Below are positions 2,254-5,456 of a stretch of 64,000 nucleotides of DNA, one piece after another. The DNA comes from Alphaproteobacteria bacterium (lineage in GTDB: Bacteria > Pseudomonadota > Alphaproteobacteria > UBA828): NCBI GenBank assembly GCA_965248825.1, contig CBDFKL010000006.1:1293095-1357094 (forward strand). The letters run 5' to 3'. Each line of letters starts with the position of its first letter. Position 1 is the stretch's first letter. The position numbers and the translations under genes were made by a program. Below the pieces are notes generated by a model. It saw nothing but the letters and a program-made list of their open reading frames with translations. It was not told where the DNA came from and did no database searches.

Positions 2254-3159
2254 TCACTCGGGAGCCAGCCCGCAACTGACGCCGCCGTCGATCGTGAGCG
2301 CGATGCCGGTGATCCACTGCGCCTCGTCCGAGGCGAGGTAGACGAAGCCGCCGGCGATGGAGGCCGGGTCTCCGATACCGAGGGGATGGAGCTTCTCAAG
2401 CCGCGCCTTGAATCCTTCGGGATCGTCGAGCTGGGACAGGTGGTGGTCGACCATCGGCGTCTGGACCCAGCCGGGGCAGATGCAGTTGACCCGGATCTGG
2501 TCCTTGGCACCGTCGAGCGCCAGGCACTTCGTCAGCATGACGACAGAGCCCTTGGAGGTTCCGTAGGCTACCTGACCGGGGGTTCCGATGAGCCCGGCGA
2601 TCGAGGCGGTATTCAGGATCACGCCGCCGCCGCGCGCGCGCATGTGGCCCCAGATCGCCTTGGCGGCCCGATAGATGCTGGTGACGTTGACGTCGATCTG
2701 ACGGTCCCAGTCCGCGCTCTCGACCTCCTCCACGGTGCCGATCACGGCCTGGCCGGCATTGTTGATCAGGACATCGACATGGCCGAGCGCCTCGATCGCG
2801 CCCTGGACGAGCCCGGTCACGTCGTCGTCGCGCATGACATCGGCCTCGATGGCGATCGCGGTGCCGCCCGCGTCCTCGATCGCACGCACGGTGCCGACAT
2901 TGTCGTCGGCGCTGAGGCCCGCGCACACGACCGCGGCGCCTTCCTGCGCGAAGCGCAGCGCCGTCGCCCGGCCGATGCCGGAGCCCGCGCCGGTGATGAT
3001 CGCGGTCTTGCCGTCGAGCCGGCGCTGCGCGTGCTCGCCCGGCCCGGTCCCGCTTCCGATTTCGGTCACCCTACCCTCATATCCCAAACCGCCGCCAAGG
3101 CTATCAGCGTCCCGCCGAACAAGCACGTCGCAAGCGCGAAGCGCGGGGGCGTGGAACAT
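2254..3159 (-). CDS. Short-chain dehydrogenase/reductase (SDR) family oxidoreductase
   Basis: Rossmann motif GKTAIITGAGSGIGRA, NNAG motif and catalytic YGTSKGSV (YxxxK) are present. It lies immediately upstream of the dehydratase on the same strand (probable operon). The start is uncertain (first Met at aa 46 of the ORF; a GTG nearer the TGxxxG motif is possible). Confidence 0.75.
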   Translation of the reverse strand: MFHAPALRACDVLVRRDADSLGGGLGYEGRVTEIGSGTGPGEHAQRRLDGKTAIITGAGSGIGRATALRFAQEGAAVVCAGLSADDNVGTVRAIEDAGGTAIAIEADVMRDDDVTGLVQGAIEALGHVDVLINNAGQAVIGTVEEVESADWDRQIDVNVTSIYRAAKAIWGHMRARGGGVILNTASIAGLIGTPGQVAYGTSKGSVVMLTKCLALDGAKDQIRVNCICPGWVQTPMVDHHLSQLDDPEGFKARLEKLHPLGIGDPASIAGGFVYLASDEAQWITGIALTIDGGVSCGLAPE

Positions 3160-3364
3160 CGTTGAGACCGGGAGAGAGGAGGCTCGGACCCTGCGGGGCT
3201 GACGGCGGCACGCGGCTTCGTCGCGATCGCGGCGCGTCAGCCGGCTTCCAGCGGGTTCAATATGGTCAGCCCTTCGAAACCGGCCGCTTGGCAAAGACGA
3301 CGATCTGCGCAGACAAATGTCAAAGGCGCCGGCACGCTGTGACGAACCGTCAGACAGCCGGCGA
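3155..3364. repeat. Direct repeat copy A (about 210 bp, about 90% identical to 4061..4272); contains a remnant vapC 3' end
   Basis: Near-identical string to copy B (aacatcgttgag…gcgatcgcgg…ttccagcgggttca…gacaaatgtcaaaggcgccggcacgctgtgacgaaccgtcagacagccggcga). On the minus strand it encodes …VCADRRLCQAAGFEGLTILNPLEAG*, i.e. the VapC C-terminus with one amino-acid change. Confidence 0.8.
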
Positions 3365-3380
3365 TCTCCTCGGTATCCGG

Positions 3381-3728
3381 TCAGTCTTCGAGGAGCCGGG
3401 TCAGCATATGACGGACGTGATCCTGACCACCAAAGAACACCGCCAGAACACGGATAGTCCGACGCGCTTCATCGATATCGAACCAGTAGATCGCCCGGTC
3501 GATCGTCAGATGCCGCAGACCGGGCAGAATGTCGTCATGGCTTTCGCCTCGGTGGGGCGCGGTCAGGATGCGGTTCGCGGCCGCGCGGATGTCCAAAACC
3601 CGCGCCTCGGCATTATCAAACGCGGCTTCCACGCTCTCGCCAAAGCCGAGGTAGTTGTCGAAGAGATGGTCGAAGATCAGTCCGAAATCGCGCTCGGCCT
3701 CCGCCGAGAACTCAAGACGGAAGTCCAT
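3381..3728 (-). CDS. parE: ParE/RelE-family type II toxin
   Basis: 115-aa protein (MDFRLEFSAEAERDFGLIFDHLFDN…RVLAVFFGGQDH…), typical ParE size and fold signature. It overlaps the upstream antitoxin gene by 17 nt. Confidence 0.8.
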   Translation of the reverse strand: MDFRLEFSAEAERDFGLIFDHLFDNYLGFGESVEAAFDNAEARVLDIRAAANRILTAPHRGESHDDILPGLRHLTIDRAIYWFDIDEARRTIRVLAVFFGGQDHVRHMLTRLLED

Positions 3729-3987
3729 GCGAGCGGCGCTTCGCGGCGATCACGTCGGCCAACCGGCTATCCATCCGCTCCCCGCTAATGAACTTGCGCT
3801 CCCGGCGGCGGGCCAGAACCTCGCGCAGCGCCGTGAGTTCCAGCTCCTCGGCTTCTATCCGCTGGCGCAGCAGGTCCATGCCCTGTTGCAATACGGCGCT
3901 GACGCTGGAATAGCGCCCAGCCTCCACCAATGTCCTGGCGAAGGCGTGTTGCTTGTCCGTGAGCGAGACCGAAGATTTGATCGTCAT
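3712..3987 (-). CDS. parD: ParD-family (RHH/CopG-like) type II antitoxin
   Basis: The start was set at MTIKSSVSLTDKQHAFARTLVEAGRYSSVSAVLQQGMDLLRQR…, the characteristic ParD antitoxin N-terminus. It lies upstream of and overlapping parE. Confidence 0.8.
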   Translation of the reverse strand: MTIKSSVSLTDKQHAFARTLVEAGRYSSVSAVLQQGMDLLRQRIEAEELELTALREVLARRRERKFISGERMDSRLADVIAAKRRSHGLPS

Positions 3988-4008
3988 AGGTGCTCTCTTT
4001 GACAGCGA

Positions 4009-4027
4009 GGTAGCACCTGGTAGCACC
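4009..4027. promoter_or_regulatory. Tandem direct repeat GGTAGCACC-T-GGTAGCACC just upstream of parD (candidate ParD operator)
   Basis: A 9-nt unit is repeated twice with a 1-nt spacer, 20-40 nt upstream of the parD start on the minus strand. ParD antitoxins autoregulate through repeat operators. Confidence 0.3.
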
Positions 4028-4060
4028 GACGTCAATATCGACCACCTCGCGAGAGCGTAT

Positions 4061-4272
4061 AACATCGTTGAGTTCGAGAGAGAGGGGGCTTGGACCCTGC
4101 GAGGAGCCGACGGCGGCCCGTGGCTTCGTCGCGATCGCGGCTCGTCAGCCTGCTTCCAGCGGGTTCAGTATGGCCAGCCCTTCGAAACCGGCCGCCTGGC
4201 AAAGACGACGATCGGCGCAGACAAATGTCAAAGGCGCCGGCACGCTGTGACGAACCGTCAGACAGCCGGCGA
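4061..4272. repeat. Direct repeat copy B (about 210 bp); overlaps the authentic 3' end of vapC
   Basis: See copy A. Copy B spans vapC codons for …CADRRLCQAAGFEGLAILNPLEAG* plus about 85 nt downstream. Confidence 0.8.
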
Positions 4273-4597
4273 GCTGGAGGGCGTCATAAGTCCTGAGCGG
4301 GTGGGAGTCGAGCGACCGAGCGGCCTCCTCGATCACCGCCGAGCTTGACGGCTGCACGAGATACAATGATGACCTGTCTTCGTCGATCTGCTTGAGGATT
4401 CGATTGGCGTCCGGCCCCGAGATGTCACCCTCTCGCTCACGCCTGCGGATTGCCGAACGAGCCTCGAGGAGGGAGACGTCCAGGATGATGATGTGGCCGT
4501 CGCCGAGAGCCTCCGTCAGATCGAGCAGCGCCGCGGTTCCCTCTTCCTCGATGTAGAGCTTGATCAGCGCGCTCGTGTCCAAATAGACGCTCGCCAT
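4145..4597 (-). CDS. vapC: PIN-domain VapC-family type II toxin (ribonuclease)
   Basis: 150-aa protein with N-terminal MASVYLDTSALIKLYIEEEG (PIN acidic-residue signature DTSALI) and a size typical of VapC. Confidence 0.8.
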   Translation of the reverse strand: MASVYLDTSALIKLYIEEEGTAALLDLTEALGDGHIIILDVSLLEARSAIRRREREGDISGPDANRILKQIDEDRSSLYLVQPSSSAVIEEAARSLDSHPLRTYDALQLAGCLTVRHSVPAPLTFVCADRRLCQAAGFEGLAILNPLEAG

Positions 4598-4606
4598 AGA
4601 CCTGGA

Positions 4607-5257
4607 TCAGTGCCTGTCGTTGAGGACGGTGTCGGCGATCGAGCCGCCCCGGATGCGTACCGGCTTGAAGCCCGTGCCGCGTCGGCGGGAGTCGGGCTGA
4701 AATCGCGGATGTTTCCGATTGACCCGTATTGCGGTGATCGGGTGCAGCGGCTGATTCGGGTTGGGGACTTGGCTGGTCAGGATCAGGCGCTGTTCCGTCG
4801 CATGGCGCAGCAGGGATCCGCTCGCCCTCGGATCGCGAGCCCAACCGTGGCCGCTTTCGGGAAGAAAGTGATCGCGGAACCATGTCAGGCCGACGAACGG
4901 TCGCACGCCTTCGGCAGTCTTGAGCTCGGCGATGAGTTGGTCCATGGCGGTCTCGACATCGACCGTGTCGGCCGGTCCCTCGAAACGGTTGCCGCCGGAC
5001 TCGCGCTCGGCGGCTTCGTGCTGAGGTGTTTCAAGCGGAACGAATTTGATCATCACGACGCACTTGTCGGGGTCGAAATAGCCGGCAGACGCGTCCTCGC
5101 GGATTTTCCTCTGGGAATCCGCGTTGTGGATGCTGACCTGGGGGTTGCGGTCATCGACGGGCAAATGCCGGAGCCCCTGCAATTCGCTCGGAAGGGTTAG
5201 AGCGGGCAGGCTGGCGAGACTTTCCTCGATGTCCCGCTGCAAGTCGGCAATTTTCAT
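4607..5257 (-). CDS. Uncharacterised 216-aa protein in the antitoxin position upstream of vapC (no recognisable antitoxin fold)
   Basis: It ends 9 nt before the vapC start on the same strand. The coding looks real (GC3-biased, no low-complexity run), but it is three times longer than normal VapB and has no RHH/AbrB/Phd-like N-terminus that I can recognise. Confidence 0.5.
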   Translation of the reverse strand: MKIADLQRDIEESLASLPALTLPSELQGLRHLPVDDRNPQVSIHNADSQRKIREDASAGYFDPDKCVVMIKFVPLETPQHEAAERESGGNRFEGPADTVDVETAMDQLIAELKTAEGVRPFVGLTWFRDHFLPESGHGWARDPRASGSLLRHATEQRLILTSQVPNPNQPLHPITAIRVNRKHPRFQPDSRRRGTGFKPVRIRGGSIADTVLNDRH

Positions 5258-5271
5258 TTTTTCTCCTATTT

Positions 5272-5290
5272 TTCTAGCAAATTACTAGAA
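5272..5290. promoter_or_regulatory. Perfect inverted repeat TTCTAG-N7-CTAGAA in an AT-rich divergent promoter region
   Basis: ttctagcaaattactagaa lies in the about 200-bp AT-rich spacer between the 216-aa/vapC operon (minus) and the SDR gene (plus), directly upstream of the 216-aa gene start. Confidence 0.35.
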
Positions 5291-5456
5291 ATTTATAAGA
5301 TCGCGCAATTTACCAGGTGCCCAGGCCCCTATGTCAAGCTCTTTGCGGCATGCGGTGGTCGGTCCCATGCGCCTCCGCCTGCGCCGATCCGTCGCGATGG
5401 TTGACTCGGTGCCGCGCGAGACGATAGGCCCGGCGGGCGGCATGGGGAGCGGCACC

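Follow-up and report, generated by a model that had tools for sequence, protein, structure and literature searches.

The routes by which toxin-antitoxin (TA) pairs spread into chromosomes without a transposase, integrase or integron are poorly understood. Integron gene cassettes in chromosomal superintegrons carry parDE and other TA pairs. In single-crossover insertion-duplication and in homology-facilitated illegitimate recombination, foreign DNA is bracketed by, or joined to, host homology with no dedicated recombinase, and both of these routes require a donor in which the cassette is already joined to host-like sequence. Among 80 parDE loci, no donor context was found that joins the cassette examined here to host-like vapC sequence.

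Insertion with long target duplication has been defined for restriction-modification (RM) gene complexes (Nobusato 2000 Gene 259:99; Furuta 2010 NAR 38:2428, PMC2853133), in which the repeats are locus-specific, range from 46 to about 420 bp, and in several cases overlap the 3′ end of a neighboring gene (PMC2853133). This mode of insertion is recognized by a complete addiction module without a mobility gene, an insert of <20 kb, direct repeats of >30 bp, a related genome with one copy of the repeat and no insert, and a repeat that is not a tRNA, not a site-specific att sequence and not dispersed (Furuta 2010; PMC2853133). Each of these features is found at a parDE locus in the window, by which we mean the whole 64-kb stretch of DNA that was analyzed: the insert is 680 nt long, the repeats measure 226 and 228 nt and occur as two copies in the 64 kb, and two relatives (L002 and L103) carry the empty site. 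The likeness to RM insertions extends to a module that is, by analogy, of the post-segregational-killing type and complete, to the lack of a mobility gene, and to long direct repeats that are locus-specific, variable in length (here 38-226 bp) and single-copy in genomes that lack the insert. Such single-copy empty alleles are seen both for the window relative to L002 and for a second locus, L077, relative to L090, L096 and L097. Unlike the RM cases, the cargo is a type II TA pair in a far smaller unit (about 0.68 kb), and it is found mostly in uncultured soil and marine lineages rather than mainly in naturally competent pathogens. When the literature was searched for target duplications or flanking direct repeats at TA cassettes, the only papers recovered dealt with RM systems or were unrelated reports on mobile genetic elements. 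We found no report of the target-duplication mode for type II TA cassettes; in the literature found, it is stated for RM systems only.

Other described systems share part of this architecture. Islands and prophages that target the 3′ ends of tRNA, tmRNA or protein genes likewise have repeats that hold a gene 3′ end, an intact gene, and an empty site in relatives, but here there is no integrase, att core or conserved target gene, and both the length and the sequence of the repeats differ at each locus. As with integron cassettes, a TA unit made of a promoter and two genes, and well below 1 kb in size, is transferred from genome to genome, whereas the flanks here are ordinary host sequence (coding 3′ ends and terminators), with two copies per locus and no array. 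An intI gene was not seen in the syntenic loci of two relatives (L001 and L002), and integron attC sites were rejected as an identity for the repeats because these are host coding or terminator sequence that is single-copy at empty sites. Finally, relBE is described as inserted in the 3′ part of hokD in the Qin prophage of E. coli (Ramisetty & Santhosh 2016, as reported in PMC6379469). From that report, the two cases appear alike in that one TA module came to lie within the 3′ region of a toxin gene belonging to another, and unlike in that hokD is given as truncated (51 versus about 70 codons) whereas vapC is full length here through the 226-bp duplication.

The parDE cassette and its flanking repeats

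The direct repeats, copy A (3142-3367) and copy B (4048-4275), form one 228-nt blastn alignment with 90.4% identity (E=8e-87). A repeat search of the window divides the pair into blocks 3195-3367/4103-4275 (94%) and 3142-3198/4048-4104 (82%), separated by a 2-nt indel. No third copy was detected by blastn in the 64-kb window, where the next best match has E=0.49. The repeat is not a recognizable tRNA or Rfam element, as a tRNA scan found no tRNA in the window and no Rfam match was obtained, and a consensus promoter and terminator scan of the region was also negative. The initial annotation had already reported direct repeats of approximately 90% identity around parDE, at 3155-3364 and 4061-4272. 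The true bounds reach slightly beyond these positions, and 3364 and 4272 are correct as the points where perfect identity ends on the vapC-internal side. The pair is indeed bracketed as that annotation proposed, but the repeats do not abut the open reading frames: 60 nt separate copy B from the parD ATG, and 13 nt separate the parE stop codon from copy A.

Copy B, the proximal repeat, lies on the minus strand and is the true, functional 3′ end of vapC. It comprises the last 42 codons and the stop codon (4145-4275) followed by a 97-nt tail (4048-4144), and so is correctly read as a vapC 3′ end with downstream sequence, although its extent had been put at only 25 codons and 85 nt. Copy A, the distal repeat on the same strand, is a dead vapC stub. 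Its coding remnant (3240-3367; translation IAGCL...LTILNPLEAG) and stop codon (3237-3239) are followed by a 95-nt tail (3142-3236) that is the original downstream sequence and continues into the upstream region of a short-chain dehydrogenase (SDR) gene. The single amino-acid change previously attributed to copy A is present internally as Ala142Thr; the matching stretch is 42 rather than 25 codons, and a Leu>Ile difference exists besides at the junction codon. Similarly, the synonymous differences that had been listed are all present, and the list was one short of the five coding differences in total (GCC/GCA, CAG/CAA, GCC/ACC, CTG/TTG and GCA/GCC), of which four are synonymous and one is non-synonymous.

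The 680-nt insert between the repeats (3368-4047) contains only parD, parE and their promoter; as first noted, it has no integrase. Its GC content is lower than that of the window (61.5% for the cassette versus 66.3%). The parD gene (3712-3987, minus strand) overlaps parE by 17 nt and encodes a 91-aa antitoxin that matches PF03693 at 31.3 bits (cut-off 21) and TIGR02606 with E=8.9e-10, but at 38.5 bits, below the 46.2-bit cut-off of the latter model. The parE-like gene (3381-3728, minus strand) is an open reading frame for a predicted 115-aa toxin. This protein itself has no Pfam or NCBIfam match, and is assigned through its homologues as a putative divergent member of the RelE/ParE superfamily. 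Specifically, 18 of 21 homologues match PF05016 (best E=2.9e-5), and the family profile matches the ParE1 structures 8c24 (E=1.2e-4) and 3kxe (E=7.5e-3). Plasmid homologues in PLSDB are annotated as RelE/ParE family toxins, with identities of 47-59%; because all are <60% identical, no plasmid donor of the cassette was identified among them.

The interrupted region belongs to what we presume, from gene order, to be a TA module in its own right. The vapC gene (4145-4597, minus strand) encodes a 150-aa PIN-domain toxin (PF01850, 35.8 bits) whose homologues are also 150 aa long, and after the duplication it retains the same length and end as in L002. Starting 9 nt upstream of vapC is a gene for a 216-aa protein, U216 (4607-5257, minus strand), which has no family match in Pfam, NCBIfam, PADLOC or a sequence search of the PDB; PADLOC recognized none of the four proteins. 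In four further genomic contexts a gene for 216-230 aa lies ahead of the PIN gene, and U216 is presumably the antitoxin partner of the VapC family, making this pair the host module of the insertion. No flanking repeats of the U216-vapC module itself were found in seven loci tested. On the other side of the insert, the SDR gene (2254-3072, minus strand; adh_short match) forms the downstream flank. SDR, parE, parD and vapC are all encoded on the minus strand. The vapC stub is in frame with parE for read-through, a match that by itself is a 1-in-3 coincidence, and a parE-vapC-stub fusion was dropped as a candidate since nothing supports it.

Filled and empty sites in relatives

An exact-protein look-up of the window VapC and ParE, and of the 100%-identical P0001, returned no contig, and relatives were instead reached through P0002 to P0006 and P0121. 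The locus L001, whose VapC is 94% identical, has a filled site with the order PIN-ParD-ParE-SDR and junction sequences identical to those of the window. L002 (VapC 87% identical) and L103 have the same synteny with no insert: vapC is followed by a single repeat copy, which is identical in sequence in these two, and then by the SDR gene, which adjoins vapC directly. The upstream flank of the single copy in L002 matches the vapC side of the window, whereas its downstream tail matches the copy A/SDR side. The parDE locus is therefore an insertion and not an old tandem duplication, because L002 and L103 carry vapC, a single copy and SDR in the same synteny, and it was filled by a single event common to two lineages. 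An empty site in which vapC directly precedes the downstream flank, of the kind that the initial annotation had suggested looking for, was thus found; that annotation had considered as its opposite a duplication present in all relatives. The empty site of L002 could in principle be the product of secondary excision between copies B and A, which would give the same hybrid with B on the left and A on the right.

No recombinase gene was found in the insert, nor did the genes called in the syntenic loci L001 and L002 include one within about 6 kb. L002 and L103 are also the closest outgroup available for polarizing the repeats; a search of JGI metagenomes with a degenerate 49-nt vapC 3′ pattern yielded no match. 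More distant VapC relatives (L083-L087, 73-79% identity) sit in other genomic contexts and are therefore useless for polarizing the tail.

Cassette limits and repeats at other parDE loci

Alignment of cassettes from Vicinamibacterales, Alpha- and Gammaproteobacteria, Binatia and others defines a conserved mobile unit of 655 bp that runs from a putative -35 box (window position 4035) to the parE stop codon (3381). DNA homology begins at 4035 in most aligned cassettes and at the parD start in the rest, and ends at 3381; no conserved att-like ends were found among them beyond this promoter-to-stop core. The left end of the unit is a conserved putative promoter/operator region (3988-4035, minus strand) with a candidate -35 box, TTGACG, at 4030-4035 and the tandem element GGTGCTACC-A-GGTGCTACC at 4010-4028. 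Across cassettes the pattern gTTGAC..GGTGCTACC..AGTnnTACC is kept in the upstream region, and nothing farther upstream is kept.

Short filler sequences separate this core from the repeats. The 12-nt left filler (aggtggtcgata; 4036-4047, minus strand), located between copy B and the conserved cassette, has no homology to copy A, L002 or other cassettes. The 13-nt right filler (3368-3380, minus strand) lies between the parE stop codon and copy A, and directly after the stop codon it reads ccggataccgag in the window and ccggatactgag in L009, with 11 of 12 positions matching and the L009 alignment reaching window position 3369. Judged by this match, the right filler is probably the 3′ flank of the donor.

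Duplications of local sequence recur in the parDE family. Flanking direct repeats of 38-91 nt were found at 8 of 74 other parDE loci, compared with 5 of 409 shifted control positions, which are mostly genic (Fisher p=1.4e-4). Among the positives, the repeat in L049 looks REP-like, and the upstream repeat in L008 overlaps the cassette promoter. These repeats show no relationship from one locus to the next, and none is a tRNA; they consist of the 3′ ends of neighboring genes in L064, L017, L072 and L014, and of a terminator region in L077. From a reading of the sequences, the remnant and intact copies in L064 and L017 differ mostly by non-synonymous changes. A second empty site was identified in Thalassospira, where L077 has the arrangement leftflank-S77-cassette-S77-sdhB and the metagenome contigs L090, L096 and L097 have leftflank-S-sdhB. 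An empty-site comparison thus exists for only two of roughly ten loci. The data show no recombinase in the insert, no conserved ends, no specificity for vapC and, in this parDE family, recurrent flanking duplications that are specific to each locus.

Origin of the duplicated vapC end

Differences between copies A and B are unevenly distributed, with 5 of 128 positions in the coding part versus 14 of 95, plus indels, in the tail (p=0.006). Considering fixed differences, the B tail carries 9/95 and the coding stub of A carries 2/128 (p=0.01), such that the tail is ~4-5x more diverged. Only two of the five coding differences are common to the window and L001, and in both the derived state is on the non-functional copy A, whereas all of the polarizable fixed tail differences (7/7) are derived in B. 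At every polarizable site the A tail agrees with the single copy of L002, and it shows 0/108 differences between the window and L001. After the split of these two lineages, the B tail again changed ~4-5x faster (7/184) than the A coding half (2/256; p=0.04). Because divergence of the tail is faster both before and after this split, no diverged donor is needed. The excess of changes in the B tail over the A stub is not what simple neutral drift of two copies made in situ would give; gene conversion, constraint on A or a diverged donor is required.

The explanation that we regard as probable is a single insertion of parDE, neither site-specific nor dependent on a recombinase, with in-situ duplication of 226 bp of the target. 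A minimal parD-parE cassette would have entered on one occasion, in an ancestor shared by the window genome and the L001 lineage. The incoming DNA would have been the 655-bp core with 12-13 nt of flanking donor sequence at either end, and the duplicated target the last 42 codons of vapC and about 100 nt downstream. In this way the promoter-proximal copy B would keep vapC whole, while the distal copy A would be left as a stub that retains the original upstream region of SDR. Later drift would then have affected the unconstrained halves (A coding sequence and B tail) and left the constrained halves (B coding sequence and A tail) unchanged, probably with occasional gene conversion between the copies. 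We infer that the duplication was made in situ at the time of insertion, perhaps by capture of a linear molecule at a break with overlapping ends, or perhaps by a replication template switch to the cassette and then back upstream. The structure may persist because its excision is counter-selected: a crossover between the repeats would remove parDE and free the stable ParE toxin.

A different origin for the same structure is the import of a circle, consisting of the repeat and parDE, from a diverged relative in which the cassette already lay beside vapC. A single RecA-dependent (Campbell-type) crossover within the 226-bp homology would leave copy B with a resident left and a donor right part, and copy A with a donor left and a resident right part, which amounts to the "replacement 3′ end" of the initial annotation without an integrase. 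The partition of fixed coding differences to A and of polarizable fixed tail differences to B fits a crossover near the vapC stop codon, but the same split is expected from in-situ duplication, in which A coding sequence and the B tail are exactly the halves free of constraint. Import would also agree with the lower divergence of the coding part and with the 4:1 ratio of synonymous to non-synonymous differences in the window (p=0.02-0.06), as expected for two functional alleles. The initial annotation had taken this bias as a sign that both copies evolved as functional coding sequence in different lineages. That conclusion is not supported: the bias comes from five sites, the two that are fixed are both on the dead copy, and the changes in the A lineage number three synonymous and two non-synonymous (p=0.13-0.26 versus the neutral expectation). 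Moreover, L001 carries a Cys>Arg change in its copy A, and the Ala/Thr site is common to the functional copy of L001. Circles of this kind are expected once a repeat-cassette-repeat structure is present, but a donor cannot account for the faster change of the B tail after the split from L001, a vapC gene beside parDE was not found among 80 genomes, and the first insertion beside vapC would be left unexplained. On these grounds we consider import by a circle unlikely.

Two further explanations seem far less credible. One is the site-specific element of the initial annotation, in which a trans-acting integrase would act on an attP carrying a substitute vapC 3′ end. The repeats do include and restore the gene 3′ end, with the geometry of attL and attR at tRNA genes, and an empty site exists. 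Set against this are the lack of a recombinase gene in the insert or nearby in L001 and L002, of anything conserved outside the promoter-to-stop core among the aligned cassettes, and of any tRNA or Rfam match. Targeting of the vapC 3′ end is not borne out either, as 0 of 80 homologous parDE loci from other genomes have a VapC of the same family within 4 kb, and an imported replacement end finds no support in loci elsewhere, which duplicate their own, differing local sequences of 38-91 nt. Such an element is already contradicted on three defining features and is very improbable. The other explanation starts from tandem paralogues (U216-vapC, parDE and a second U216-vapC), with later deletion of the last of these to its final 42 codons. 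TA loci often cluster, and copy A is a clean in-frame 3′ fragment. Yet copy A begins 13 nt past the parE stop codon, neither U216 nor the 5′ part of vapC has left a trace there, and other parDE loci have short flanking duplications of unrelated sequences. A paralogue remnant was rejected because the one resident vapC of L002 and L103 accounts for both flanks, and we give this origin hardly any weight.

The probable account, insertion with in-situ duplication, places a signature defined ~25 years ago for RM genes on a parDE cassette of 0.68 kb, as seen in two empty-site cases (the window locus and Thalassospira sdhB) and in about eight further loci with locus-specific repeats, in different phyla. 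For annotation, short "orphan" 3′ gene fragments beside TA pairs would be insertion scars rather than pseudogenized paralogues. Counter-selection of excision points to a simple explanation for the retention of unstable repeat-flanked structures by addiction modules in particular. In addition, the parDE cassette is a very small, easily synthesized and selectable cargo for tests of the mechanism, including the roles of RecA, Ku/LigD, gyrase and toxin activity.

It is tempting to extend this account to the parDE family, and perhaps to type II TA cassettes generally, as a recombinase-free mobile unit that would enter chromosomes across phyla by insertion with long target duplication driven by the toxin. 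Gyrase cleavage stabilized by ParE, and the resulting double-strand breaks, might promote illegitimate joining, and post-segregational poisoning might then block repeat-mediated excision. We view this extension as quite unlikely. If true, however, TA cassettes would gain the "virus-like life cycle" that has been proposed, but never demonstrated, for RM systems.

A parDE cassette between two copies of a vapC 3′ end

Reading of both strands places every gene of interest on the minus strand. A short-chain dehydrogenase (SDR) gene (2254-3072) is preceded by genes for a 115-aa ParE-like protein (3381-3728) and a 91-aa ParD protein (3712-3987; PF03693), then by a gene for a 150-aa PIN/VapC protein (4145-4597; PF01850) and, 9 nt upstream of vapC, by a gene for a 216-aa protein without family match (4607-5257). 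ParD is a clear member of its family, and the toxin is best classified as a divergent ParE. Specifically, a direct Pfam search with the window ParE-like protein yields no match, the ParE family profile matches the ParE1 structures 8c24 (E=1.2e-4) and 3kxe, 18 of 21 homologues match PF05016, and plasmid homologues carry the annotation RelE/ParE. The GC content of the cassette is 61.5% and that of vapC is 62.5%, versus 66.3% for the window. Across 3200-5400, values are 57-63% over both toxin-antitoxin (TA) modules versus 68-72% in the flanking SDR genes. The two modules form a low-GC nested islet of roughly 2 kb between two SDR genes, and both were horizontally acquired.

A direct-repeat search finds two adjoining blocks, 3195-3367/4103-4275 (94% identity) and 3142-3198/4048-4104 (82%), which blastn merges into a single 228-nt alignment (90.4%, E=8e-87); no third copy is present by blastn in the 64-kb window. 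These searches confirm the repeat pair flanking parDE reported in the initial annotation. Its vapC-internal limit of 3364/4272 is exact, with perfect identity ending there, and the intergenic end reaches slightly further than proposed. The proximal copy B (4048-4275) consists of the final 42 vapC codons with their stop codon, followed by a further 97 nt, such that the earlier figure of 25 VapC residues is an undercount. The distal copy A (3142-3367), a dead vapC stub, encodes these residues too, apart from one internal substitution (Ala142Thr) and a Leu to Ile change at the junction codon. Divergence between the copies is uneven, with no differences in the first 59 nt, 5/128 across the whole coding part, and 14/95 plus two indels in the tail. 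The stub continues the reading frame that ends at the parE stop codon TGA (3237-3383, minus strand), as it also does in the relative L001, and read-through would append five linker residues and 42 VapC C-terminal residues. This frame match is probably a coincidence.

Empty sites, cassette limits and the choice of target

VapC homologues were gathered, and their contigs were retrieved for synteny comparison. L001 (VapC 94% identical) has the order PIN-ParD-ParE-SDR, both repeats, and junction sequences exactly as in the window; the insertion is therefore older than the split of these two lineages. L002 (VapC 87% identical) and L103 share the synteny (SDR, ILVD etc.), but there the SDR gene comes straight after vapC and the repeated segment is present once. 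The initial annotation had named the lack of any empty site as refuting evidence; these relatives do have one, and insertion, targeted or untargeted, is supported.

A search with a degenerate sdhB 3′-end pattern yielded 15 Thalassospira-like metagenome contigs, 13 of which carry a single 77-nt element (S) beside sdhB. In L090, L096 and L097 the order is left flank-S-sdhB, with the left flank as in the Thalassospira locus L077, where two 100% identical 77-nt copies of S enclose 29 nt, the cassette and 22 nt. This comparison provides a second empty-site proof. Two Thalassospira-like contigs, L094 and L102, carry parDE genes (L094:1493-2236; L102:9996-10748) only about 75% identical to those of L077 and adjoining the same S element beside sdhB. 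Their left flank differs from that of L077 and S is not repeated, which suggests an insertion hotspot or cassette replacement.

The limits of the mobile unit emerge from blastn comparison of the window region with 80 homologous parDE loci from other genomes, including Vicinamibacterales, Alpha- and Gammaproteobacteria, Binatia, and MAGs labelled Spirochaetia. DNA homology between cassettes (70-86%) starts at 4035 in most aligned loci and at the parD start in the remainder, and stops at the parE stop codon (3381), giving a 655-bp core. Position 4035 marks the -35 hexamer TTGACG, which precedes the parD ATG by 48 nt. Conservation upstream of parD sets in abruptly at this box and covers a promoter and a tandem GGTGCTACC-like operator, with none further out in the aligned upstream regions. 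At 4010-4035 (minus strand) and equivalent positions in L003-L077, a TTGAC -35 box is followed by two GGTGCTACC-like half-sites that are conserved across phyla and are likely the ParD operator. Filler of 12 nt on the left and 13 nt on the right separates the core from the repeats. The right filler, ccggataccgag, is probably donor flank because it shares 11/12 positions with the sequence 3′ of the L009 cassette. The cassette has no terminal inverted repeats or att-like ends, and the insert has no space for a recombinase gene.

A VapC of the window family lies within 4 kb of none of the 80 parDE loci (0/80), and thus the proposal that the element targets the vapC 3′ end is unsupported. The 216-aa/PIN pair occurs in at least four unrelated contexts and is itself a mobile two-gene module, for which no flanking repeats of its own were found. 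The 216-230-aa partner (window 4607-5257, minus strand; L002:5342-6034; L083:3341-3991; L085:3300-3992; L086:3326-3991) always lies 9-10 nt upstream of the VapC/PIN gene (overlapping in L002). It has no match in Pfam, NCBIfam, PADLOC or PDB, and is presumably an undescribed large antitoxin or partner. The window and L001 differ at five codons over the 624 nt of parDE, and at nine non-synonymous and one synonymous codon in vapC. Because the vapC changes are mostly non-synonymous and the partner is internally deleted by ~100 aa in L001 (called as 108 aa; L001:3062-3850 versus window 4145-5257), the host vapC module appears to be decaying in the L001 lineage while the nested parDE stays conserved.

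In-situ duplication or an imported 3′ end

We aligned copies A and B from the window and L001 with the single copy from L002. In the coding half, only two A/B differences are fixed in both genomes (CAG to CAA and CTG to TTG), both derived on the dead copy A. The remaining coding differences are lineage-specific, namely GCA once in window A and once in window B, Cys to Arg in L001 A, and a further two changes in L001 B. At the Ala/Thr site, window B has the L002 state and L001 B has the state of both A copies, which suggests gene conversion or recurrent mutation. A synonymous bias had been taken as a sign of two functional lineages. This reading finds no support, since the A lineage has three synonymous versus two non-synonymous changes, no different from the neutral expectation of 0.27-0.37 synonymous (p=0.13-0.26); the earlier 4:1 ratio reaches a nominal p=0.02-0.06 but pools changes from both copies. 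In the tail half, 7/7 polarisable fixed differences are derived in B. The A tail shows 0/108 differences between the window and L001, is near L002, and presumably still serves as the SDR upstream region.

The diverged halves are exactly the two that lost function. This partition is predicted alike by in-situ target duplication and by its main rival, Campbell-type import through a single crossover. The feature that separates these readings is the B tail, with 4-5 times the divergence of the A coding half; the contrast is seen both before the window/L001 split (9/95 versus 2/128, p=0.01) and after it (7/184 versus 2/256, p=0.04). Because the ratio is the same in both periods, no diverged donor is needed to explain it. 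The contrast suggests conversion or constraint acting on A, or else a hypervariable tail in B. Conversion between such flanking repeats is plausible because the 38-nt copies at L014 (3453-3490/4247-4284) are 100% identical, whereas the upstream copy in the orthologous L045, from a related genome sharing that parDE insertion, has decayed, with a 26-nt deletion. Repeat identity is therefore unreliable as a clock, and gene conversion is likely. Given the unchanged divergence ratio without a donor, together with plausible conversion, in-situ target duplication is the favoured reading.

Recurrence in the parDE family and possible routes to duplication

In each locus, the 800 nt preceding parD were compared with the 800 nt following parE. 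Direct repeats of 38-91 nt (77-100% identical) occur in L008, L014, L017, L049, L062, L064, L070, L072 and L077. They are mutually unrelated, include no tRNA, and are present in two copies per 8-kb locus (three in L062, with shorter partial copies also in L049). In a fixed 500-nt design, 8/74 parDE loci score at least 50 bits versus 5/409 shifted, mostly genic, control positions in the same loci (Fisher p=1.4e-4); the five control hits come from paralogues that match over long stretches of 200-460 nt. GC3-guided frame analysis identifies the duplicated parts. L064 repeats the final 23 codons of a co-directional 319-aa gene, L017 the final 22 codons of a 175-aa gene together with 18 nt, L072 the 3′ end of a 236-aa gene, and L014 the final 12 codons of a convergent 822-aa gene; in L077 the duplicated part is the terminator region of convergent sdhB. 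On reading the L064 and L017 sequences, the detached and intact copies differ mostly at non-synonymous positions. The L049 repeat looks REP-like, and the L008 upstream repeat overlaps part of the cassette promoter. In L008 (3640-3723/4650-4740) and L062 (3629-3694, 4465-4520 and 4617-4679), the downstream repeat lies ~120-300 nt past parE, and these repeats may have been left by partial tandem amplification instead of a simple duplication of the target.

Insertion with long target duplication has been described for restriction-modification (RM) systems (Nobusato et al., 2000; Furuta et al., 2010, PMC2853133). The window structure has every operational hallmark of such events (PMC2853133): the addiction module is complete and lacks mobility genes, the repeats exceed 30 bp and are neither tRNA nor att site, and a relative holds a single copy. 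Repeats in the RM cases vary from 46 to about 420 bp, and several cover the 3′ ends of neighbouring genes; the authors suggested that double-strand breaks play a part and sketched a life cycle running from invasion through amplification to release, but had no mechanism (PMC2853133). A later review repeats long target duplication for RM systems only (PMC3874152), and our literature searches found no description of it for type II TA cassettes. A loosely related case is that of relBE in the Qin prophage, which is inserted within the 3′ part of hokD and leaves that host ORF truncated (PMC6379469).

A site-specific island model fails on integrase, conserved target and conserved ends, and an integron model is rejected because the repeats are host sequence, present in single copy at empty sites. 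Thus, of the initial interpretation, the insertion, the empty site and the lack of an integrase stand, and the targeting and the imported 3′ end are not supported. The duplication would be a by-product of the joining reaction, arising through overlapping break ends or template switching, and the repeat-flanked structure may be kept because ParE would be set free by excision across the repeats. As an explanation of the duplication itself, survivorship selection is weak, since a truncated toxin gene would do no harm, and a direct role for ParE-induced gyrase breaks is speculative. The sequences themselves show that a minimal parDE cassette was inserted once, free of any recombinase and with duplication of 226 bp of the target, and that flanking duplication is a recurrent feature of this parDE family.
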